Shown here in pieces: positions 3,017 through 45,077 of a stretch of 64,000 nt of DNA; positions within the stretch are counted from its first letter, which is position 1; each line of letters opens with the position of its first letter. Location: contig OZ024752.1 of assembly GCA_964016885.1 (NCBI GenBank), forward strand, positions 48,732,001 to 48,796,000, given 5' to 3'. Source of the DNA: Eledone cirrhosa (taxonomy: Eukaryota). The translations under genes were made by a program, and so were the position numbers. The notes below the pieces were generated by a model. The model saw only the letters and a list, made by a program, of their open reading frames with translations. It made no database searches and was not told the DNA's origin.

Positions 3017-3169
3017 AGAAAAATGTTTAACCCTGACAGCAGAACTCAAGTTGAGCTCTGCTGTCAGGGTTAAACATTTTCCTATTACCCTCTCTACTAC
3101 CCTAACTATTGTACTATTGAGTACTCTGGTGCGTTATGGTCCACCTGGTTCCTTACCACACTTCCTTCG

Positions 3170-3209: not shown

Positions 3210-3452
3210 ATAATAAATGTGAAGACTAAATCCGAAGAGGGCTTGATAAGGATTCTATATATATATATAAAATATATATATATATATATATATTTAAAAA
3301 TACATATATATATAAATACATATATATATATATTAAAAATATATATATATATATAAATACATATATATATATATAAATACATATATATATATATATATAA
3401 ATAAATACATATATATATATAAATAAATACATATATCTATATAAATAAATAC

Positions 3453-3485
<33 letters not shown>

Positions 3486-3508
3486 CATATATATATATAA
3501 ATAAATAC

Positions 3509-3563
<55 letters not shown>

Positions 3564-3675
3564 CATATATATATGAATATAGACATAGAATATTCGAAAA
3601 TATTCTGTATGTTTATAATAAACATTTTGAAGACCTAATCGCTATAGAATAGAATACGTCACGTATTACAATTAG

Positions 3676-3764
3676 ATTCTCGATAAAAGCAAGGGAAGTA
3701 ATCTACGCGTTTCATTCTTGTTAGAAATCATCAGGACTACATATCCAGTGCTTTTATCGAGAAT
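3676..3764 (-). ncRNA. Type I hammerhead ribozyme, first of 4 minus-strand copies (others 3986-4074, 4296-4384, 4606-4694)
   Basis: Exact reverse complement of 4863-4951 (gtaatctacgcgtttcattcttgttagaaatcatcaggactac at 3698-3740). Confidence 0.88.
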
Positions 3765-4862
3765 GACACAGCTAGAGACTTATAGAATACTTAGCTGTGT
3801 ACAGGAACTGGTTTGAAAGAGCGGTTGCCGGTCCGGCAGAAATTAGAAATTGGAATAAATGCTCTGAAATAGCGATATATATGTGAATATAGACATAGAA
3901 TATTCGAAAATATTCTGTATGTTTATAATAAACATTTTGAAGACCTAATCGCTATAGAATAGAATACGTCACGTATTACAATTAGATTCTCGATAAAAGC
4001 AAGGGAAGTAATCTACGCGTTTCATTCTTGTTAGAAATCATCAGGACTACATATCCAGTGCTTTTATCGAGAATGACACAGCTAGAGACTTATAGAATAC
4101 TTAGCTGTGTACAGGAACTGGTTTGAAAGAGCGGTTGCCGGTCCGGCAGAAATTAGAAATTGGAATAAATGCTCTGAAATAGCGATATATATGTGAATAT
4201 AGACATAGAATATTCGAAAATATTCTGTATGTTTATAATAAACATTTTGAAGACCTAATCGCTATAGAATAGAATACGTCACGTATTACAATTAGATTCT
4301 CGATAAAAGCAAGGGAAGTAATCTACGCGTTTCATTCTTGTTAGAAATCATCAGGACTACATATCCAGTGCTTTTATCGAGAATGACACAGCTAGAGACT
4401 TATAGAATACTTAGCTGTGTACAGGAACTGGTTTGAAAGAGCGGTTGCCGGTCCGGCAGAAATTAGAAATTGGAATAAATGCTCTGAAATAGCGATATAT
4501 ATGTGAATATAGACATAGAATATTCGAAAATATTCTGTATGTTTATAATAAACATTTTGAAGACCTAATCGCTATAGAATAGAATACGTCACGTATTACA
4601 ATTAGATTCTCGATAAAAGCAAGGGAAGTAATCTACGCGTTTCATTCTTGTTAGAAATCATCAGGACTACATATCCAGTGCTTTTATCGAGAATGACACA
4701 GCTAGAGACTTATAGAATACTTAGCTGTGTACAGGAACTGGTTTGAAAGAGCGGTTGCCGGTCCGGCAGAATTCCAATTTCTAATTTCTGCCGGACCGGC
4801 AACCGCTCTTTCAAACCAGTTCCTGTACACAGCTAAGTATTCTATAAGTCTCTAGCTGTGTC

Positions 4863-4951
4863 ATTCTCGATAAAAGCACTGGATATGTAGTCCTGATGAT
4901 TTCTAACAAGAATGAAACGCGTAGATTACTTCCCTTGCTTTTATCGAGAAT
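4863..4951 (+). ncRNA. Type I hammerhead ribozyme, first of 8 plus-strand copies (others 5173-5261, 5483-5571, 5793-5882, 6104-6192, 6414-6502, 6724-6812, 7034-7122)
   Basis: gtagtc-CTGATGA(4893-4899)-t.ttct[aaca]agaa.t-GAAA(4914-4917)-CGCG-TA^-gattac. Stem I gtagtc/gattac is extended past an internal loop by a perfect 16-bp helix attctcgataaaagca/tgcttttatcgagaat. Stem III is minimal and palindromic. Predicted cleavage after 4923 (GUA). Confidence 0.88.
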
Positions 4952-7255
4952 CTAATTGTAATACGTGACGTATTCTATTCTATAGCGATTAGGTCTTCAA
5001 AATGTTTATTATAAACATACAGAATATTTTCGAATATTCTATGTCTATATTCACATATATATCGCTATTTCAGAGCATTTATTCCAATTTCTAATTTCTG
5101 CCGGACCGGCAACCGCTCTTTCAAACCAGTTCCTGTACACAGCTAAGTATTCTATAAGTCTCTAGCTGTGTCATTCTCGATAAAAGCACTGGATATGTAG
5201 TCCTGATGATTTCTAACAAGAATGAAACGCGTAGATTACTTCCCTTGCTTTTATCGAGAATCTAATTGTAATACGTGACGTATTCTATTCTATAGCGATT
5301 AGGTCTTCAAAATGTTTATTATAAACATACAGAATATTTTCGAATATTCTATGTCTATATTCACATATATATCGCTATTTCAGAGCATTTATTCCAATTT
5401 CTAATTTCTGCCGGACCGGCAACCGCTCTTTCAAACCAGTTCCTGTACACAGCTAAGTATTCTATAAGTCTCTAGCTGTGTCATTCTCGATAAAAGCACT
5501 GGATATGTAGTCCTGATGATTTCTAACAAGAATGAAACGCGTAGATTACTTCCCTTGCTTTTATCGAGAATCTAATTGTAATACGTGACGTATTCTATTC
5601 TATAGCGATTAGGTCTTCAAAATGTTTATTATAAACATACAGAATATTTTCGAATATTCTATGTCTATATTCACATATATATCGCTATTTCAGAGCATTT
5701 ATTCCAATTTCTAATTTCTGCCGGACCGGCAACCGCTCTTTCAAACCAGTTCCTGTACACAGCTAAGTATTCTATAAGTCTCTAGCTGTGTCATTCTCGA
5801 TAAAAGCACTGGATATGTAGTCCTGATGATTTCTAACAAGAATGAAACGCGTAGATTACTTCCCTTGCTTTTTATCGAGAATCTAATTGTAATACGTGAC
5901 GTATTCTATTCTATAGCGATTAGGTCTTCAAAATGTTTATTATAAACATACAGAATATTTTCGAATATTCTATGTCTATATTCACATATATATCGCTATT
6001 TCAGAGCATTTATTCCAATTTCTAATTTCTGCCGGACCGGCAACCGCTCTTTCAAACCAGTTCCTGTACACAGCTAAGTATTCTATAAGTCTCTAGCTGT
6101 GTCATTCTCGATAAAAGCACTGGATATGTAGTCCTGATGATTTCTAACAAGAATGAAACGCGTAGATTACTTCCCTTGCTTTTATCGAGAATCTAATTGT
6201 AATACGTGACGTATTCTATTCTATAGCGATTAGGTCTTCAAAATGTTTATTATAAACATACAGAATATTTTCGAATATTCTATGTCTATATTCACATATA
6301 TATCGCTATTTCAGAGCATTTATTCCAATTTCTAATTTCTGCCGGACCGGCAACCGCTCTTTCAAACCAGTTCCTGTACACAGCTAAGTATTCTATAAGT
6401 CTCTAGCTGTGTCATTCTCGATAAAAGCACTGGATATGTAGTCCTGATGATTTCTAACAAGAATGAAACGCGTAGATTACTTCCCTTGCTTTTATCGAGA
6501 ATCTAATTGTAATACGTGACGTATTCTATTCTATAGCGATTAGGTCTTCAAAATGTTTATTATAAACATACAGAATATTTTCGAATATTCTATGTCTATA
6601 TTCACATATATATCGCTATTTCAGAGCATTTATTCCAATTTCTAATTTCTGCCGGACCGGCAACCGCTCTTTCAAACCAGTTCCTGTACACAGCTAAGTA
6701 TTCTATAAGTCTCTAGCTGTGTCATTCTCGATAAAAGCACTGGATATGTAGTCCTGATGATTTCTAACAAGAATGAAACGCGTAGATTACTTCCCTTGCT
6801 TTTATCGAGAATCTAATTGTAATACGTGACGTATTCTATTCTATAGCGATTAGGTCTTCAAAATGTTTATTATAAACATACAGAATATTTTCGAATATTC
6901 TATGTCTATATTCACATATATATCGCTATTTCAGAGCATTTATTCCAATTTCTAATTTCTGCCGGACCGGCAACCGCTCTTTCAAACCAGTTCCTGTACA
7001 CAGCTAAGTATTCTATAAGTCTCTAGCTGTGTCATTCTCGATAAAAGCACTGGATATGTAGTCCTGATGATTTCTAACAAGAATGAAACGCGTAGATTAC
7101 TTCCCTTGCTTTTATCGAGAATCTAATTGTAATACGTGACGTATTCTATTCTATAGCGATTAGGTCTTCAAAATGTTTATTATAAACATACAGAATATTT
7201 TCGAATATTCTATGTCTATATTCACATATATATCGCTATTTCAGAGCATTTATTC

Positions 7256-7301
<46 letters not shown>

Positions 7302-7528
7302 AAATATATATATATAAATACATATATATATATATAAATACATATATATATATATAAATACATATATATATATATATTATATATATAAATACATATATAA
7401 ATATCACCATCATCATCGCTTAACGTCCATCTTCCACGCTTGCATGGGTTTGGAAATATATTTATATATGAGGTTGGTGTTAGGAAGGGCAAATAAATAT
7501 TAATCTGTACTTATGATTATATATATAT

Positions 7529-7789: not shown

Positions 7790-8210
7790 GCCACTATGTT
7801 AATTGCTGGGTCATATTTTTGTGGCCTTGTCATTGACAGTTTCTCTATGTCAATGGCTGGGTCATATTTTTGTGTCTGTGTCATTGACACAGTTTCTCTA
7901 TGTCAATGGCTGGGTCATATTTTTGAGGCTTTGTCATTGACACAGTTTCTCTATGTCAATGGCTGGGTCATATTTTGTGGCCTCGTCATTGACACAGTTT
8001 CTCTATGTCAATGGCTGGGTCATATTTTTGTGGCCTTGTCATTGACACAGTTTCTCTATGTCAATGACAGGGTCATATTTTGTGGCCTTGTCATTGACAG
8101 TTTCTCTATGCCAATGGCTGGGTCATATTTTTGTGGCCTTGTCATTGACACAGCTTCTCTATGTCAATGGTTGGGTCATATTTTTGTGGCTTTGTCATTA
8201 ACACAGTTTC
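7790..8210. repeat. Minisatellite of about 52-53 bp, about 8 units
   Basis: tgtcaatggctgggtcatatttttgtggccttgtcattgacacagtttctcta. Confidence 0.9.
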
Positions 8211-8474
8211 GCTAAACTCTGTTCACCCTTAATGGGATCTTCTGAAACTCAAATTTGGTCTATGGTTTTATATATTTTTATATATATATATAGGAACAAT
8301 CGACTTTCGTCAAATCGGACCGAGGAAACAATGTTTCCGTTGGTCTTTAGTCTCCACATTTATTACCGTCGAGGTTAAATTTGCCTTTCATCTTTACGGT
8401 GTCGATAAAATAAAGTACCAGTAATGCACTGGAAAAATTGCTGGCCTTGTGCCAAAAGTAGAAACAATTATTAT

Positions 8475-11739: not shown

Positions 11740-13566
11740 CTGAAGAGCCCTCCCTACTCATGGTGGAGGTGAAGAGCTCTCTCTACTCACGGTGGGGCTG
11801 AAGAGCCTTCTCTACTCATGGTGGAGGTGATGAGCTCTCTCTACTCACGGTGGCGGTGAAGAGCTCTCTCTACTTACAGTTGCGGTGAAGAGCTCTCTCT
11901 ACTCACGGTGGGGCTGAAGACCTCTCTCTACTCACGGTGGAGGTGAAGAGCCTTCTCTACTCACGGTGGAGGTGAAGAGCCTTCTCTACTCATGGTGGAG
12001 GTGAAGAGCTCTCTCTACTCACGGTGGGGCTGAAGAGCTCCCTCTACTCACGGTGGCGGTGAAGAGCTCTCTCTACTCACGGTGGAGGTGAAGAGCTCTC
12101 TCTACTCACGGTGGGGCTGAAGAGCTCCCTCTACTCACGGTGGCGGTGAAGAGCTCTCTCTACTCACGGTGGAGGTGAAGAGCTCTCTCTACTCACGGTG
12201 GGGCTGAAGAGCTCTCTCTACTCACGGTGGCGGTGAAGAGCTCTCTCTACTCACGGTGGAGGTGAAGAGCTCTCTCTACTCACGGTGGAGGTGAAGAGCC
12301 TTCTCTACTCACGGTGGAGGTGAAGAGCTCTCTCTACTCACGGTGGAGGTGAAGACCTCTCTCTACTCACGGTGGAGGTGAAGACCTCTCTCTACTCACG
12401 GTGGGGCTGAAGACCTCTCTCTACTCACGGTGGGGCTGAAGACCTCTCTCTACTCACGGTGGGGCTGAAGACCTCTCTCTACTCACGGTGGAGGTGAAGA
12501 CCTCTCTCTACTCACGGTGGGGCTGAAGACCTCTCTCTACTCACGGTGGAGGTAAAGACCTCTCTCTACTCACGGTGGGGCTGAAGAGCTCTCTTTACTC
12601 ATGGTGGGGATAACAGGCCCTCTCTACTCATGGTGGGGGGAGAAGAGCTCTCTCTACTCATGGTGGGGCTGAAGAGCTCTCTCTACTCACGGTGGAGGTG
12701 AAGAGCTCTCTCTACTCATGGTGGGGCTGAAGAGCTCTCTCTACTCATGGTGGGGCTGAAGAGCTCTCTCTACTCACGGTGGGGCTGAAGACCTCTCTCT
12801 ACTCACGGTGGGGCTGAAGACCTCTCTCTACTCACGGTGGAGGTGAAGACCTCTCTCTACTCACGGTGGGGCTGAAGACCTCTCTCTACTCACGGTGGAG
12901 GTAAAGACCTCTCTCTACTCACGGTGGGGCTGAAGAGCTCTCTTTACTCATGGTGGGGATAACAGGCCATCTCTACTCATGGTGGGGGGAGAAGAGCTCT
13001 CTCTACTCATGGTGGGGCTGAAGAGCTCTCTCTACTCACGGTGGAGGTGAAGAGCTCTCTCTACTCATGGTGGGGCTGAAGAGCTCTCTCTACTCACGGT
13101 GGAGGTGGTGAAGACCTCTCTCTACTCACGGTGGGGCTGAAGACCTCTCTCTACTCACGGTGGAGGTGAAGAGCTCTCTCTACTCATGGTGGAGGTGAAG
13201 AGCTCTCTCTACTCACGGTGGGGCTGAAGAGCCTTCTCTACTCATGGTGGAGGTGAAGAGCTCTCTCTACTCATGGTGGGGCTGAAGAGCTCTCTCTACT
13301 TACAGTGGCGGTGAAGAGCTCTCTCTACTCACGGTGGGGCTGAAGACCTCTCTCTACTCACGGTGGAGGTGAAGAGCTCTCTCTACTCACGGTGGGGCTG
13401 AAGACCTCTCTCTACTCACGGTGGAGGTGAAGAGCTCTCTCTACTCACGGTGGAGGTGAAGACCCCTCTCTACTCATGGTGGAGGTGAAGACCTCTCTCT
13501 ACTCACGGTGGGGATAACGGGCCCTCTCTACTCATGGTGGGGGGAGAAGAGCTCTCTCTACTCACT
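11740..13566. repeat. 28/29-bp GC-rich minisatellite, about 63 units
   Basis: gaagagctctctctactcacggtgg(a/g/c)g(g/c)t; a variant block (ggggataacaggcc...ggggggagaag) recurs at about 12605, 12955 and 13510. Confidence 0.95.
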
Positions 13567-13860
13567 GGGGGGGGGGGGGGGGTGACTTGTCTCTAGTGAG
13601 ATATATTTTTGGAGGGAATAAGACAGGTGAAAGTAAGAAAGATGATGCGTAAGGTGTGATGGATAAGTGTCAATAAGTGAAAGAAGGGGGAGAGAGGATG
13701 GCAAGTATGATGTCTTGAGTGTATGACAGCGTACGACAAGTTTCATGGGGTTTAAATGGGAGATATGGGGGAGAAAAGGGTTGGGAAAATATGTCATGGG
13801 TGCATGACGACATATGTGGTAAGAATTTGACAGGGTGAGATATAAGAGAGAGGAGAGAAT

Positions 13861-15943: not shown

Positions 15944-16480
15944 AGCGATACTTTGTAGCAATACTTTGTAGCGATACTTTGTAGCGATACTTTGTAGCGA
16001 TACTTTGTAGCAATACTTTGTAGCGATACTTTGTAGCGATACTTTGTAGCGATACTTTGTAGCGATACTTTGTAGCGATACTTTGTAGCGATACTTTGTA
16101 GCGATACTTTGTAGCGATACTTTGTAGCGATACTTTGTAGCAATACTTTGTAGCGATACTTTGTAGCGATACTTTGTAGCGATACTTTGTAGCGATACTT
16201 TGTAGCGATACTTTGTAGCGATACTTTGTAGCGATACTTTGTAGCGATACTTTGTAGCAATACTTTGTAGCGATACTTTGTAGCGATACTTTGTAGCGAT
16301 ACTTTGTAGCGATACTTTGTAGCGATACTTTGTAGCGATACTTTGTAGCGATACTTTGTAGCGATACTTTGTAGCGATACTTTGTAGCAATACTTTGTAG
16401 CGATACTTTGTAGCGATACTTTGTAGCGATACTTTGTAGCAATACTTTGTAGCAATACTTTGTAGCGATACTTTGTAGCA
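15944..16480. repeat. 13-bp minisatellite (AGCGATACTTTGT)n, about 41 units
   Basis: Direct reading; occasional G>A variant agcaatactttgt. Confidence 0.95.
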
Positions 16481-16520: not shown

Positions 16521-17391
16521 CCCTTTAGCATTCACATACCATTTACATTACTCTATATCTACTATTGTATTTTCACAGTAAAGGCTTTACCTCACATAAT
16601 ATCTCACATAACATTTACATTACTCTATATATACTATTGTATTTTCACAGTAAATGCTTTACCTCACATAATATCTCACATAACATTTACATAACTCTAT
16701 ATATACTATTGTATTTTCACAGTAAAGGCTTTACCTCACATAATATCTCACATAACATTTACATTACTCTATATATACTATTGTATTTTCACAGTAAAGG
16801 CTTTACCTCACATAACATTTACATTACTTTATATATACTATTGTATTTTCACAGTAAATGCTTTACCTCACATAATATCTCACATAACATTTACATTACT
16901 CTATATATACTATTGTAATTTCACAGTAAAGGCTTTATCTCACATAATATCTCACATAACATTTACATTACTTTATATATACTATTGTATTTTCACAGTA
17001 AATGCTTTACCTCACATAATATCTCACATAACATTTACATTACTCTATATATACTATTGTAATGTCACAGTAAAGGCTTTACCTCACATAATATCTCACA
17101 TAACATTTACATTACTTTATATATACTATTGTATTTTCACAGTAAATGCTTTACCTCACATAATATCTCACATAACATTTACATTACTCTATATATACTA
17201 TTGTAATTTCACAGTAAAGGCTTTACCTCATATAATATCTCACATAATATCAAATCTATGACATTTTGATACTATTTATTTTGAGAACAATACCTTAACA
17301 ACAGCATGAGCATCCAACTACCTACAGCCGGTTTGAACAGAAAGAGGTGAGAGAATTCTGTTCGGATACGGTTGGTTTAAATACTAAAGGG
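16521..17391 (+). mobile_element. piggyBac-type MITE with internal 72-bp tandem expansion (about 10 units)
   Basis: TTAA|CCCTTTAGCATT ... AATACTAAAGGG|TTAA. Internal repeat acatttacattactctatatatactattgtattttcacagtaaaggctttacctcacataatatctcacata. Confidence 0.8.
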
Positions 17392-32660: not shown

Positions 32661-33008
32661 GGAGGCACATGGCTTAGTGGTTAGAGCATTGGTCTTGCAA
32701 TCGAAAGGTTGTGAGTTCAATTCTCAGACCGGATGATGTATTGTTTCCTTGAGCAAGACACTTTATTTCACATTGCTCCAGTTTACTCAGCTGTAGAAAT
32801 GAGATGATAGGGGCTGGGGTCCCTATCATTCCACTGCAAAGTGGTCGTGGAGGTGCCACAGCCAAAAAAGCACCCAGCACTCACTGTAAATGAGGTTGGT
32901 GTTAGGAAGGGCATCCAGCTGTAGAAATCGAGCCAGAATCAGTTCCCGTCCCACCCTTGCAAGCACGGAAAAGCGGACGTAAAATGAAATGATGATGATG
33001 ATGATGAT
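32661..33008 (+). mobile_element. SINE family A
   Basis: Full-length copy with (GAT)n tail. Partial or related copies at about 48575-48842 (-), 51340-51550 (-), 54531-54631 (+). Confidence 0.85.
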
Positions 33009-36317: not shown

Positions 36318-39300
36318 CCCTTTAGCATTCACATTACTCTATATATACTATTATATTTTAATGGTAAAGGCTTTACCTCACATAATTATCTCACATTACT
36401 CTATATTTACTATTATATTTTAATGGTAAAGGCTTTACCTCACATAATTATCTCACATTACTCTATATATACTATTGTATTTTCATGGTAAAGGCTTTAC
36501 CTCACATAATTATCTCACATTACTCTATATATACTATTATATTTTAATGGTAAAGGCTTTACCTCAAATAATTATCTCACATTACTCTATATATACTATT
36601 ATATTTTAATGGTAAAGGCTTTACCTCACATAATTATCTCACATTACTCTATATATACTATTATATTTTAATGGTAAAGGCTTTACCTCACATAATTATC
36701 TCACATTACTCTATATATACTATTATATTTTAATGGTAAAGGCTTTACCTCACATAATTATCTCACATTACTCTATATTTACTATTATATTTTAATGGTA
36801 AAGGCTTTACCTCACATAATTATCTCACATTACTCTATATTTACTATTATATTTTTATGGTAAAGGCTTTACCTCACATAATTATCTCACATTACTCTAT
36901 ATATACTATTATATTTTAATGGTAAAGGCTTTACCTCACATAATTATCTCACATTACTCTATATATACTATTATATTTTAATGGTAAAGGCTTTACCTCA
37001 CATAATTATCTCACATTACTCTATATATATACTATTATATTTTAATGGTAAAGGCTTTACCTCACATAATTATCTCACATTATTCTATATATACTATTAT
37101 ATTTTAATGGTAAAGGCTTTACCTCACATAATTATCTCACATTACTCTATATATACTATTATATTTTAATGGTAAAGGCTTTACCTCACATAATTATCTC
37201 ACATTACTCTATATATACTATTATATTTTAATGGTAAAGGCTTTACCTCACATAATTATCTCACATTACTCTATATATACTATTATATTTTAATGGTAAA
37301 GGCTTTACCTCACATAATTATCTCACATTACTCTATATATACTATTATATTTTAATGGTAAAGGCTTTACCTCACATAATTATCTCACATTATTCTATAT
37401 ATACTATTATATTTTAATGGTAAAGGCTTTACCTCACATAATTATCTCACATTACTCTATATATACTATTATATTTTAATGGTAAAGGCTTTACCTCACA
37501 TAATTATCTCACATTACTCTATATATACTATTATATTTTAATGGTAAAGGCTTTACCTCACATAATTATCTCACATTACTCTATATTTACTATTATATTT
37601 TAATGGTAAAGGCTTTACCTCACATAATTATCTCACATTACTCTATATATACTATTATATTTTAATGGTAAAGGCTTTACCTCACATAATTATCTCACAT
37701 TACTCTATATTTACTATTATATTTTAATGGTAAAGGCTTTACCTCACATAATTATCTCACATTACTCTATATATACTATTATATTTTAATGGTAAAGGCT
37801 TTACCTCACATAATTATCTCACATTACTCTATATATACTATTATATTTTAATGGTAAAGGCTTTACCTCACATAATTATCTCACATTACTCTATATATAC
37901 TATTATATTTTAATGGTAAAGGCTTTACCTCACATAATTATCTCACATTACTCTATATATACTATTATATTTTAATGGTAAAGGCTTTACCTCACATAAT
38001 TATCTCACATTACTCTATATATACTATTATATTTTAATGGTAAAGGCTTTACCTCACATAATTATCTCACATTACTCTATATATACTATTATATTTTAAT
38101 GGTAAAGGCTTTACCTCACATAATTATCTCACATTACTCTATATTTACTATTATATTTTAATGGTAAAGGCTTTACCTCACATAATTATCTCACATTACT
38201 CTATATTTACTATTATATTTTAATGGTAAAGGCTTTACCTCACATAATTATCTCACATTACTCTATATTTACTATTATATTTTAATGGTAAAGGCTTTAC
38301 CTCACATAATTATCTCACATTACTCTATATATACTATTATATTTTAATGGTAAAGGCTTTACCTCACATAATTATCTCACATTACTCTATATATACTATT
38401 ATATTTTAATAGTAAAGGCTTTACCTCACATAATTATCTCACATTACTCTATATTTACTATTATATTTTAATGGTAAAGGCTTTACCTCACATAATTATC
38501 TCACATTACTCTATATTTACTATTATATTTTAATGGTAAAGGCTTTACCTCACATAATTATCTCACATTACTCTATATATACTATTATATTTTAATGGTA
38601 AAGGCTTTACCTCACATAATTATCTCACATTATATATACTATTATATTTTAATGGTAAAGGCTTTACCTCACATAATTATCTCACATTACTCTATATTTA
38701 CTATTATATTTTCATGGTAAAGGCTTTACCTCACATAATTATCTCACATTACTCTATATTTACTATTATATTTTAATGGTAAAGGCTTTACCTAACATAA
38801 TTATCTCACATTACTCTATATATACTATTATATTTTAATGGTAAAGGCTTTACCTCACATAATTATCTCACATTACTCTATATTTACTATTATATTTTAA
38901 TGGTAAAGGCTTTACCTCACATAATTATCTCACATTACTCTATATTTACTATTATATTTTAATGGTAAAGGCTTTACCTCACATAATTATCTCACATTAC
39001 TCTATATATATACTATTATATTTTAATGGTAAAGGCTTTACCTCACATAATTATCTCACATTACTCTATATATACTATTATATTTTAATGGTAAAGGCTT
39101 TACCTCACATAATTATCTCACATTACTCTATATTTACTATTATATTTTAATGGTAAAGGCTTTACCTCACATAATTATCTCACATTACTCTATATTTACT
39201 ATTATATTTTAATGGTAAAGGCTTTACCTCACATAATTATCTCACATTACTCTATATATACTATTATATTTTAATGGTAAAGGCTTTACCTCACATAATT

Positions 39301-41216
39301 ATCTCACATTACTCTATATATACTATTATATTTTAATGGTAAAGGCTTTACCTCACATAATTATCTCACATTACTCTATATATACTATTATATTTTAATG
39401 GTAAAGGCTTTACCTCACATAATTATCTCACATTACTCTATATATACTATTATATTTTAATGGTAAAGGCTTTACCTCACATAATTATCTCACATTACTC
39501 TATATATACTATTATATTTTAATGGTAAAGGCTTTACCTCACATAATTATCTCACATTACTCTATATTTACTATTATATTTTAATGGTAAAGGCTTTACC
39601 TCACATAATTATCTCACATTACTCTATATTTACTATTATATTTTAATGGTAAAGGCTTTACCTCACATAATTATCTCACATTACTCTATATATACTATTA
39701 TATTTTAATGGTAAAGGCTTTACCTCACATAATTATCTCACATTACTCTATATTTACTATTATATTTTAATGGTAAAGGCTTTACCTCACATAATTATCT
39801 CACATTACTCTATATATACTATTATATTTTAATGGTAAAGGCTTTACCTCACATAATTATCTCACATTACTCTATATTTACTATTATATTTTCATGGTAA
39901 AGGCTTTACCTCACATAATTATCTCACATTACTCTATATATACTATTATATTTTAATGGTAAAGGCTTTACCTCACATAATTATCTCACATTACTCTATA
40001 TATACTATTATATTTTAATGGTAAAGGCTTTACCTCACATAATTATCTCACATTACTCTATATTTACTATTATATTTTAATGGTAAAGGCTTTACCTCAC
40101 ATAATTATCTCACATTACTCTATATATACTATTATATTTTAATGGTAAAGGCTTTACCTCACATAATTATCTCACATTACTCTATATATACTATTATATT
40201 TTAATGGTAAAGGCTTTACCTCACATAATTATCTCACATTACTCTATATTTACTATTATATTTTCATGGTAATGGCTTTACCTCACATAATTATCTCACA
40301 TTACTCTATATATACTATTATATTTTAATGGTAAAGGCTTTACCTCACATAATTATCTCACATTACTCTATATATACTATTATATTTTAATGGTAAAGGC
40401 TTTACCTCACATAATTATCTCACATTACTCTATATATACTATTATATTTTAATGGTAAAGGCTTTACCTCACATAATTATCTCACATTACTCTATATATA
40501 TTATTATATTTTAATGGTAAAGGCTTTACCTCACATAATTATCTCACATTACTCTATATTTACTATTATATTTTCATGGTAAAGGCTTTACCTCACATAA
40601 TTATCTCACATTACTCTATATTTACTATTATATTTTAATGGTAAAGGCTTTACCTCACATAATTATCTCACATTACTCTATATATACTATTATATTTTAA
40701 TGGTAAAGGCTTTACCTCACATAATTATCTCACATTACTCTATATTTACTATTATATTTTCATGGTAAAGGCTTTACCTCACATAATTATCTCACATTAC
40801 TCTATATTTACTATTATATTTTAATGGTAAAGGCTTTATCTCACATAATATCTCAAATAACATTCACATTACTCTATATATACTTTTGTATTTTCATGGT
40901 AAAGGCTTTATCTCACATAATATCTCAAATAACATTCACATTACTCTATATATACTTTTGTATTTTCATGGTAAAGGCTTTATCTCACATAATATCTCAA
41001 ATAACATTCACATTACTCTATATATACTATTACATTTTCATGGTAAAGGCTTTACCTCACATAATTATCTCACATAATATCGAATCTATGAGATTTTGAA
41101 AGTATTTATTTTGAGAACAATACCTTAACATCAGTATGAGCGACCAGTTAAAGCCAGTTTCAACAGAAAGAGGTAGAGAATTCTGGCCGGTTTTGGCCGG
41201 TTTGAACACTAAAGGG
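36318..41216 (+). mobile_element. piggyBac-type MITE inflated to 4.9 kb by a 62-bp minisatellite (about 72 units, plus about three 72-bp variant units)
   Basis: TTAA|CCCTTTAGC at 36314-36326 and ctaaaggg ending at 41216. 62-bp period (atggtaaagg at 36361, 36423, 36485...). Normal MITE 3' half at about 41075-41216. Confidence 0.85.
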
Positions 41217-43994: not shown

Positions 43995-45077
43995 TTCCAT
44001 TCACACTACTCTATATTTACTATTATATTTTCATGGTAAAGTACCAGTAATGCACTGGGTATTTGCTGGCTTTGTGTCAAAAGTAGAAACAATTATATTT
44101 TCATAGTAAAGTCTTTAGTTCATATAATTATCTCACATAATATTGAATCTATGAGATGTTGATATTATTTATTTTGAGAACGGTGCATTGGCAGTATCGG
44201 TAGAGGGTCGGGCGCCATGCTTTGACGCATAGAGTTACGGCCCTTGCCATTCTGAGTTCAAATCACGCCGAGGTTAACTTTGCCTTTCATCCTTACGGGG
44301 TCGATAAAATAAAGTACCAGTAATGTACTGGGTAATTTCTGGCCTTGTGCCAATAGTAGAAACAATTATTTATTTTGAGAACAATACCTTAACATCAGTA
44401 TGAGCAGCTGGTTACTGCCGGTTTGAACAGAAAGAGGTGAAAAATTTCTGGCCGGATATGACTGGTTTAAGCGCTAAAGGGTTAACCCTTTACCATTTAC
44501 ATTACTCTATATTACTATTGTATTTTCATGGTAAAGTCTTTACCTCACATAATTATCTCACATTACTCTATATATACTATTGTATTTTCATGGCAAAGGC
44601 TTTACCTCACATAATTATCTCACATTACTCTATATATACTATTGTATTTTCATGGTAAAGTCTTTACCTCACATAATTATCTCACATTACTCTATATTTA
44701 CTATTGTATTTTCATGGTAAAGTCTTTACCTCACATAATTATCTCACATTACTCTATATATACTATTGTATTTTCATGGCAAAGGCTTTACCTCACATAA
44801 TTATCTCACATTACTCTATATATACTATTGTATTTTCATGGTAAAGGCTTTACCTCACATAATTATCTCACATTACTCTATATTTACTATTGTATTTTCA
44901 TGGTAAAGTCTTTAGCTCACATAATTATCTCACATAATATTGAATCTACGAGATTTTGATATTATTTATTTTGAGAACAACACCTTAACATCAGTATGAG
45001 CAGCCGGTTACTGCCGGTTTGAACAGAAAGGGGTGAGAAAATTCTGACCGGATATGACTGGTTTAAACGCTAAAGGG
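43995..45077 (+). mobile_element. Two tandem piggyBac-type MITEs sharing a TTAA (44482-44485); first has SINE insertions, second has about seven 62-bp units
   Basis: gctaaaggg-TTAA-ccctttacc junction; right end gctaaaggg|TTAA at 45077. Confidence 0.75.

Follow-up and report, generated by a model that had tools for sequence, protein, structure and literature searches.

The window analysed here, that is, the whole stretch of 64,000 nucleotides of Eledone cirrhosa DNA (contig OZ024752.1, positions 48,732,001 to 48,796,000 of the forward strand), contains an insertion built from a 310-bp unit and arranged as two divergent arms between (TA)n tracts. The left arm (3574..4771, minus strand) holds 3.9 units with four hammerheads, and the right arm (4771..7258, plus strand) holds 8.0 units with eight. 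The 5' ends of the arms meet at 4771, and their RNA-sense 3' ends face outwards into the (TA)n tracts. Units are numbered from the first base after the predicted cleavage site (4924 = 1), so that the left arm ends at unit position 130 (3574; B end, without tail) and the right arm at unit position 164 (7258; A end, with tail). The tail, of Penelope-like element (PLE) type, comprises unit positions 131-164 (7225..7258, plus strand); it ends the right arm and is missing from the left-arm end. At the junction of the two 5'-truncated arms (4765..4776), unit positions 173 and 158 are joined with a 1-nt overlap at 4771. The last 10 bases (3564-3573) of the left (TA)n target tract (3256..3573) recur at 7259-7268, where the right target tract (7259..7404) opens, and this 10-bp direct repeat is likely to be a target-site duplication.

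The first plus-strand type I hammerhead lies at 4887..4929, with predicted cleavage after 4923, and further plus-strand hammerheads start at 5197, 5507, 5817, 6128, 6438, 6748 and 7058; those on the minus strand start at 4670, 4360, 4050 and 3740. A cleavage-to-cleavage monomer (4924..5233, plus strand) has 310 nt and 34% GC and is the predicted RNA circle. Every unit also contains a conserved branched RNA element, with a closing helix and two hairpins, at unit positions 59-145 (7153..7239, plus strand). The initial annotation had described this region as one ORF-less, head-to-tail array of twelve hammerheads in which units differ by a single insertion. All twelve 43-nt motifs in the window are indeed identical and follow the 310-bp period, and nine of the ten cleavage-to-cleavage monomers are identical, the other having 311 nt with an extra T near 5869. 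In six frames of a tetramer, the longest stop-to-stop frame has 59 aa, and the longest from ATG 30 aa. The single array, however, has to be abandoned: four motifs lie on the minus strand (3698-4670) and eight on the plus strand (4887-7100), the arms diverging from 4771, and Tandem Repeats Finder reports 3.9 copies on one side of this position and 8.0 on the other. The two-armed inverted plan, with its unequal fixed ends and (TA)n target, was absent from that annotation and is the most informative feature.

The canonical type I core is present (C3-U4-G5-A6-N7-G8-A9, G12-A13-A14, an NUH triplet and stems I-III). As first proposed, the cleavage triplet is GUA, ending at 4923, stem III is a self-complementary palindrome of 6 nt, and stem I, which includes one G.U pair, is extended by a 16-bp distal helix that closes the hammerhead (4863..4951, plus strand; 4863-4878 pairs with 4936-4951). 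The fold of this distal helix has a z-score of -5.26, and none of 200 shuffles was equally stable. The G10.1-C11.1 pair is missing, the base of stem II being U.U in most loci and A-U in a minority. The mismatch that had been entered as a caveat is therefore real, but it is not a sign of decay, since U.U prevails in the 310-bp family and is present in several further hammerhead families of the genome, the pLTR hammerhead of an ORF-bearing PLE among them. The Rfam search that had been recommended returned no hammerhead match at gathering score, the only hit being Hammerhead_HH9 at 19.2 bits (cut-off 52; E 0.041). The circular fold of the 310-nt monomer is predicted at -67.8 kcal/mol (z -4.7, 100 shuffles). 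In this modelling the hammerhead fold would be 6.7 kcal/mol costlier than the predicted minimum of the circle, which would weigh against a ribozyme-made circle.

Genome-wide copies were counted by pattern search of the unit core and of the end patterns. The exact 43-mer occurs 4,177 times in the 3.0-Gb genome, and 18,171 intact-core units are found when the core is given its variable positions; the reversed controls gave none in either search, and recurrence of the motif is not chance. The copy-number check envisaged at the outset thus reveals a dispersed family of thousands of units. At 8.7 units per locus (615 units in 71 loci), the total is estimated at ~2,000 insertions and ~5.6 Mb, which the family adds to the octopus genome as long inverted repeats. 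Within-locus divergence is 4.6e-4 substitutions per site, the insertions being very young and nearly unmutated. A cephalopod host, as had been suggested from the sequence, is corroborated at order level by host ADAR2, which is 95% identical to that of Octopus vulgaris, the next named mollusc standing at 72%; this makes the host an octopod.

The insertion plan was followed across 76 loci, consisting of the window and 75 loci of contig C1 that were picked by the core (11), the longer end (40), the shorter end without a listed partner (19) or one variant (5). One locus with an N gap (L033), a duplicate of L063 (L173) and the inner rearranged segments of L043 were left out before counting, as were variants less than 30 nt from a 5' end from the variant counts; mosaic counts rest on 76 loci and register counts on 71. 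Sixty of the 76 loci were fully seen as two divergent arms. Every complete two-armed locus combines an A with a B end (46/46 among the first 51 loci, 60/60 among the 76), and no A+A or B+B locus occurs among these 60. The other 16 comprise nine with B only, three with A only, two long A arms with the B end beyond the examined segment, and two with one arm cut. A ends lie at unit 164-172 and B ends mostly at 130 or 139, at an AU-rich stretch able to pair with the target. The order of the arms is always minus then plus, which would be the only layout obtainable by priming from both sides of a break. Nearly all ends (92/94) run into (TA)3+, and direct duplications of 10-58 bp that include a non-TA letter are present in 8/69 loci, the window included. 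In the remaining 61 of these 69 loci, duplications are either masked by pure TA or absent. Genome-wide, the end patterns are about equally frequent, with 665 forward A ends (the reverse count being inflated by double listing) and 607 + 636 B ends.

The 5' ends, by comparison, are spread uniformly round the unit (KS p 0.12), with 2/96 at most 6 nt from the cleavage site against 3.7 expected. Arms overlap by at least 2 nt in 21/31 insert-free junctions against 18% expected, and inserts are present in 17/48 junctions. Short-read contigs of run X2 contain loose TA ends at unit 139 and 170, so the plan is not a long-read artefact. The A and B ends of one array are 14,947 bp apart.

Craig et al. have described PLE insertions as biased towards (TA)n, with an inverted 5'-truncated copy and, at a single end, a tail of 30-40 bp (10.1101/2021.04.23.441226). 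Both the inverted copy and a PLE-like one-end tail are present in the 310-bp family, A being longer than B and never two of a kind occurring together. The shared plan is a PLE insertion signature, indicating that a PLE enzyme almost certainly moves the 310-bp element. Frangieh et al. report that the protein of the PLE Poseidon_Ac nicks and extends both strands, and that reverse transcription starts at two adjacent internal RNA sites, the interval between them being the tail (PMC11167929). Dual priming of this PLE type very probably makes the insertions. The initial view of a PLE-linked, recently mobile non-LTR retrozyme is thus supported by the insertion plan more strongly than could then be appreciated.

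The same divergent orientation and target duplications are produced by L1 twin priming, in which the second start site varies. A LINE-type enzyme working in this way would explain those two features of the family, but here the two start sites are fixed, 35 nt apart in register, the family lacks a poly(A) or 3' tag, and PLEs of the same genome have a matching (TA)n target and tail, leaving this explanation very improbable. Near-identical units in a palindromic layout might also be expected of a DNA-level satellite or fold-back grown by unequal crossing over, or of an assembly artefact of long-read fold-back, and local satellite-type amplification has been proposed for retrozymes (10.64898/2026.07.22.740005). 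Such an origin is scarcely credible and already largely refuted by dispersed loci with two fixed, different ends and unequal arm lengths, by target duplications in 8 of 69 loci, by the recovery of ends in short-read contigs too, and by selection on RNA pairing.

The host genome is rich in elements that combine RT and GIY-YIG domains (10,596 candidates), and several of its PLEs have the linker CxxC motif of Neptune/Nematis type. In one ORF-bearing family, P2, the hammerhead is similar, with U.U and a palindromic stem III; P2 locus L128 consists of two divergent arms with ends ~122-125 and 165-175 nt after the hammerhead. PLE ORFs with a related pLTR, which the initial annotation had suggested looking for, were sought by BLAST and covariance model in 50 GIY-YIG loci (the 30 top matches and 20 with long frames, of 150 scored) out of the 10,596 candidates, and none was found among the 50. 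In these loci, BLAST and the covariance model, which was built on the conserved element, returned nothing beyond weak AT-rich matches and sister-family insertions that were independent. No RT + GIY-YIG ORF lies within the 310-bp element, and tblastn detected no PLE ORF joined to an arm at the examined loci, of which L033 is broken by an N gap. The PLE fragment behind that gap was considered as a partner and rejected, as it belongs to another family with another hammerhead.

Taken as a whole, the 310-bp element is probably a non-LTR retrozyme, a non-autonomous retroelement whose mobility is provided in trans by a Penelope-like RT/GIY-YIG enzyme copying a circular template. In such a cycle, arrays would be transcribed, and adjacent hammerheads would associate by way of the palindromic stem III, cleaving the RNA into 310-nt monomers for closure by a host ligase; a lone circle would be stable because it has no partner ribozyme. 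The layout of the inserted DNA shows nicking of both strands within a (TA)n tract, at times staggered by 10-58 bp. Each 3' end then primes reverse transcription at one of two fixed internal sites, ~130 and ~165 nt after the cleavage site, giving one arm of each kind, outward-pointing, as is seen in the DNA and matches published PLE biochemistry. Both cDNAs may be copied from one and the same monomer, the number of laps varying. As the junctions show, they stop at random positions and are joined by 2-8 nt of microhomology or by short inserts.

The nature of the template is addressed by internal variants. The 71 loci contain 29 haplotypes, each of which runs through all units of both arms. As a mutation arises in one unit, a uniform long two-armed array needs a one-unit bottleneck followed by re-amplification, which repeated copying round a monomer circle would achieve most simply. 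Loci with a once-seen haplotype are as long as those with common haplotypes (median 2360 vs 2681 bp, p 0.84). A linear cleaved monomer was discarded as template, since a cleavage site is crossed by 43/46 arms of each kind and is not a point where 5' ends cluster. One haplotype per locus, together with no pile-up of 5' ends at the cleavage site, favours repeated copying of a monomer circle, which is on balance the preferred template over a linear multimer; granted PLE-type dual priming, a monomer circle is reasonably likely. The rolling-circle product of the initial annotation is accordingly favoured by locus-wide uniformity, which falls short of proof. Circular contigs of 310 nt (runs X1, X3 and X6) were not counted in favour of an RNA circle, as tandem DNA collapses to the same contig.

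Dual priming might instead act on a linear multimer, transcribed from a uniform source array and left uncleaved. The ribozyme would then be slow or serve in end-trimming only, and short seeds would expand at the DNA level to make new haplotypes uniform. This route, too, is compatible with uniform 5' ends, and in vitro the ribozyme was reported to be dispensable, unprocessed RNA being the main substrate (PMC11167929). In addition, non-autonomous multi-copy Chlamys PLEs exist in a clade described without hammerheads (10.1101/2021.04.23.441226). At two loci (L071 and L183), one variant unit is found at the same lap in both arms (4/43 shared-zone arm occurrences). This in-register sharing weighs against a pure circle, as a monomer circle needs conversion between arms to yield it, whereas the other 39 of the 43 shared-zone variants are not in register, contrary to a linear multimer. 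Two further loci share a single-unit variant out of register. Periodic variants in four long arrays (L035, L036, L052 and L077), which also speak for the linear multimer, show that DNA-level duplication occurs as well; shared and repeated variants fit multimeric templates, inter-arm conversion or DNA-level duplication. On a linear multimer, moreover, arrays could only shrink with each generation, yet one spans ~15 kb, rare haplotypes are not shorter, and the core and stems are under selection. A linear multimeric template is, on this evidence, rather unlikely.

Selection at the RNA level on the hammerhead core and stems is evident from inherited substitutions, which keep pairing in firm stems in 7/7 cases, compared with 2/20 single-unit mutations (Fisher p 4e-5). 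None falls in the core; they lie in N7, in loop II, in the U.U pair (changed to A-U) and, as tolerated pairs only, in stems. In the extended stem I, the inherited A>G variants at 20, 259 and 262 keep pairing. Dispersed homologues that had lost core or pairing, which would have spoken against a ribozyme, are thus not the pattern seen, inherited variants sparing both core and stems. An older sister family (~317 bp, 70% identical, 1,209 pattern matches) has a different hammerhead with a U3-A8 core, a variant named in PMC4209133. Its ends are the same, and unit 59-213 is kept at ~80%. In a comparison of 20 sequences, 97.8% of 400 cells in the helix 59-64/140-145 and the two hairpins are paired; as the sequences are akin and themselves served to derive the structure, the pairing supports it but does not prove it. 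Within the unit 59-145 element, three pairs show two-sided changes across sister families in these 20 related sequences. The element is a putative RT recognition site, or handle, beside the two start sites, and a ~120-nt RNA element may suffice to recruit a PLE enzyme.

The 310-bp family is a non-LTR retrozyme, a class already published, working like a non-autonomous PLE; its new part is the insertion anatomy, which makes the mechanism testable. Metazoan non-LTR retrozymes have been described in coral, mussel and axolotl, with a circle model and PLE mobilisation proposed (PMC7229834). As reported there and in a vertebrate survey (10.64898/2026.07.22.740005), they are ORF-less, low-GC tandem units of 150-450 bp and thousands of copies, each unit with a type I hammerhead and a short palindromic stem III. 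The present family, at 310 bp and 34% GC, dispersed and with target duplications of more than 4 bp when present, shares these traits. It differs in having two divergent arms at nearly every insertion and fixed unequal ends in (TA)n, and in a stem II that opens with U.U or A-U; moreover, expression and cleavage have been shown for published retrozymes, whereas both are predictions for the 310-bp family. In the survey, 8/9 Xenopus retrozyme dimers did not cleave, which weighs against the proposed cycle (10.64898/2026.07.22.740005).

Canonical EN+ PLEs (Neptune/Nematis type) share with the family the inverted 5'-truncated copy, the 30-40 bp tail on one end, the microsatellite target and a pair of adjacent RT start sites ~100-170 nt downstream of a hammerhead (10.1101/2021.04.23.441226; PMC11167929). 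Unlike them, the 310-bp family has no RT or endonuclease, its arms are many laps of one 310-nt unit, and no sequence similarity was detectable between the unit and the pLTRs of those host PLE families that were examined. MRC1 and similar Chlamys PLEs are likewise non-autonomous, but they are green algal, of a clade described without hammerheads, and share 3' sequence with autonomous partners (10.1101/2021.04.23.441226), of which none was found for the 310-bp family among the 50 loci. Minimal hammerhead pairs on opposite strands in Schistosoma have been ascribed to truncated PLEs (PMC4209133). The word 'inverted' does not occur in the main text of PMC7229834, whose supplementary figures may show insertion ends, and the parts of the vertebrate survey covered here neither describe the two-armed plan nor sample a mollusc (10.64898/2026.07.22.740005). 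A search of main texts, including few subscription journals, found no published cephalopod retrozyme or two-armed retrozyme plan; Repbase/Dfam may have an entry for the family, under unknown repeats or non-autonomous PLEs.

The family bears on the mobility of animal retrozymes and on the role of the hammerhead in the PLE cycle. The circle-plus-PLE model came from co-occurrence and phylogeny, while the ribozyme was reported to be dispensable in the single in vitro study of a PLE (PMC11167929). In the ~2,000 near-unmutated insertions, the ends give two RT start sites to the base, and a purely computational analysis of internal variants can distinguish circular from linear multimeric templates.

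A further reading, which is doubtful, is that the two RTs of one PLE dimer, beginning at the two fixed start sites, lap a ribozyme-made 310-nt circle that host ADAR sometimes edits, the edits entering the genome. If true, each insertion would be a lap-by-lap record of two RTs, with RNA edits written back into the octopus genome. A>G makes up 10/28 inherited variants. In stems, however, A>G costs ~0 kcal/mol, compared with 1.7 for C>U; as the change is nearly free there, selection alone can explain the inherited A>G excess. The 5' neighbour bias of ADAR was not significant (5/10 vs 36/92, p 0.35), and editing therefore remains a lead. The variant A276G, in a UAG of stem I, is carried by 835/18,171 genomic units (4.6%). 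It is found on five haplotype backgrounds, with marker sites at a distance of just 8-19 nt. L189 was set aside as a third mosaic locus, its mutation being a different one. Among inherited variants, A276G alone is mosaic within a locus, in 2/10 loci (L041 and L065) compared with 0/91 other cases (post hoc p 0.009). At L065, successive units of the A arm read A A A A G G, and those of the B arm are all G.

Older sister families of the 310-bp retrozyme, with a unit of ~317 bp, are present at several comparison loci of the same genome (L113:332-712, L133-L162, L079:7113-7401, L084:2431-2917 and L127:8950-9121), and a single search pattern returned 1,209 matches to sister-family sequence across the genome. 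The conserved element, the ends and the (TA)n target are all the same as in the 310-bp family, and one of these older families has a U3-A8 hammerhead core. The U.U mismatch that opens stem II is common to many hammerhead families of this genome. Additional, unrelated hammerhead repeats, frequently within (TA)n, occur at L123:7500-9900, where the period is ~490 bp, and at L118, L121, L131 and L133; another family among these repeats has a longer stem III. Two young ORF-bearing Penelope-like element families are also present, one at L112, L116, L117, L122, L126 and L128 and the other at L113, L114, L118, L120, L121 and L124, with inverted pairs at L118 and L128. Protein identity among copies is 95-99% in these two families, which are possible material for in vitro work.

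Some retrozyme loci have unusual junctions. At L036:3098-3371, ~270 bp of GC-richer foreign sequence is caught between both arms, possibly through a template switch, and at L043:3943-4120 the junction is duplicated in a short minus-plus-minus-plus rearrangement. L063 and L173 are one insertion present twice, on either side of an N gap in contig C1, and this doubling is an assembly duplication. Three sequencing runs from three other organisms and studies (X1, X3 and X6) each yielded one 340-nt contig that equals the circular 310-nt unit with 0 differences, at a depth of 10-15; the likeliest source of these contigs is trace host DNA.

Other repeats are also found in the window. Three AT-rich arrays (16532-17247, 36329-41075 and 44499-44935) share one related 62/72-bp unit, in up to 76 copies with 97% matches, and this unit is probably a mobile minisatellite. 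The sequence at 32670-32900, in which a tRNA-like head (Rfam tRNA, 30.5 bits) is followed by a unique body, is probably a tRNA-derived SINE. Other minisatellites, of 53, 29 and 13 bp, lie at 7794-8214, 11741-13574 and 15944-16479, respectively, and a near-perfect palindrome of ~60 bp at 3020-3082 has microsatellites on both sides.
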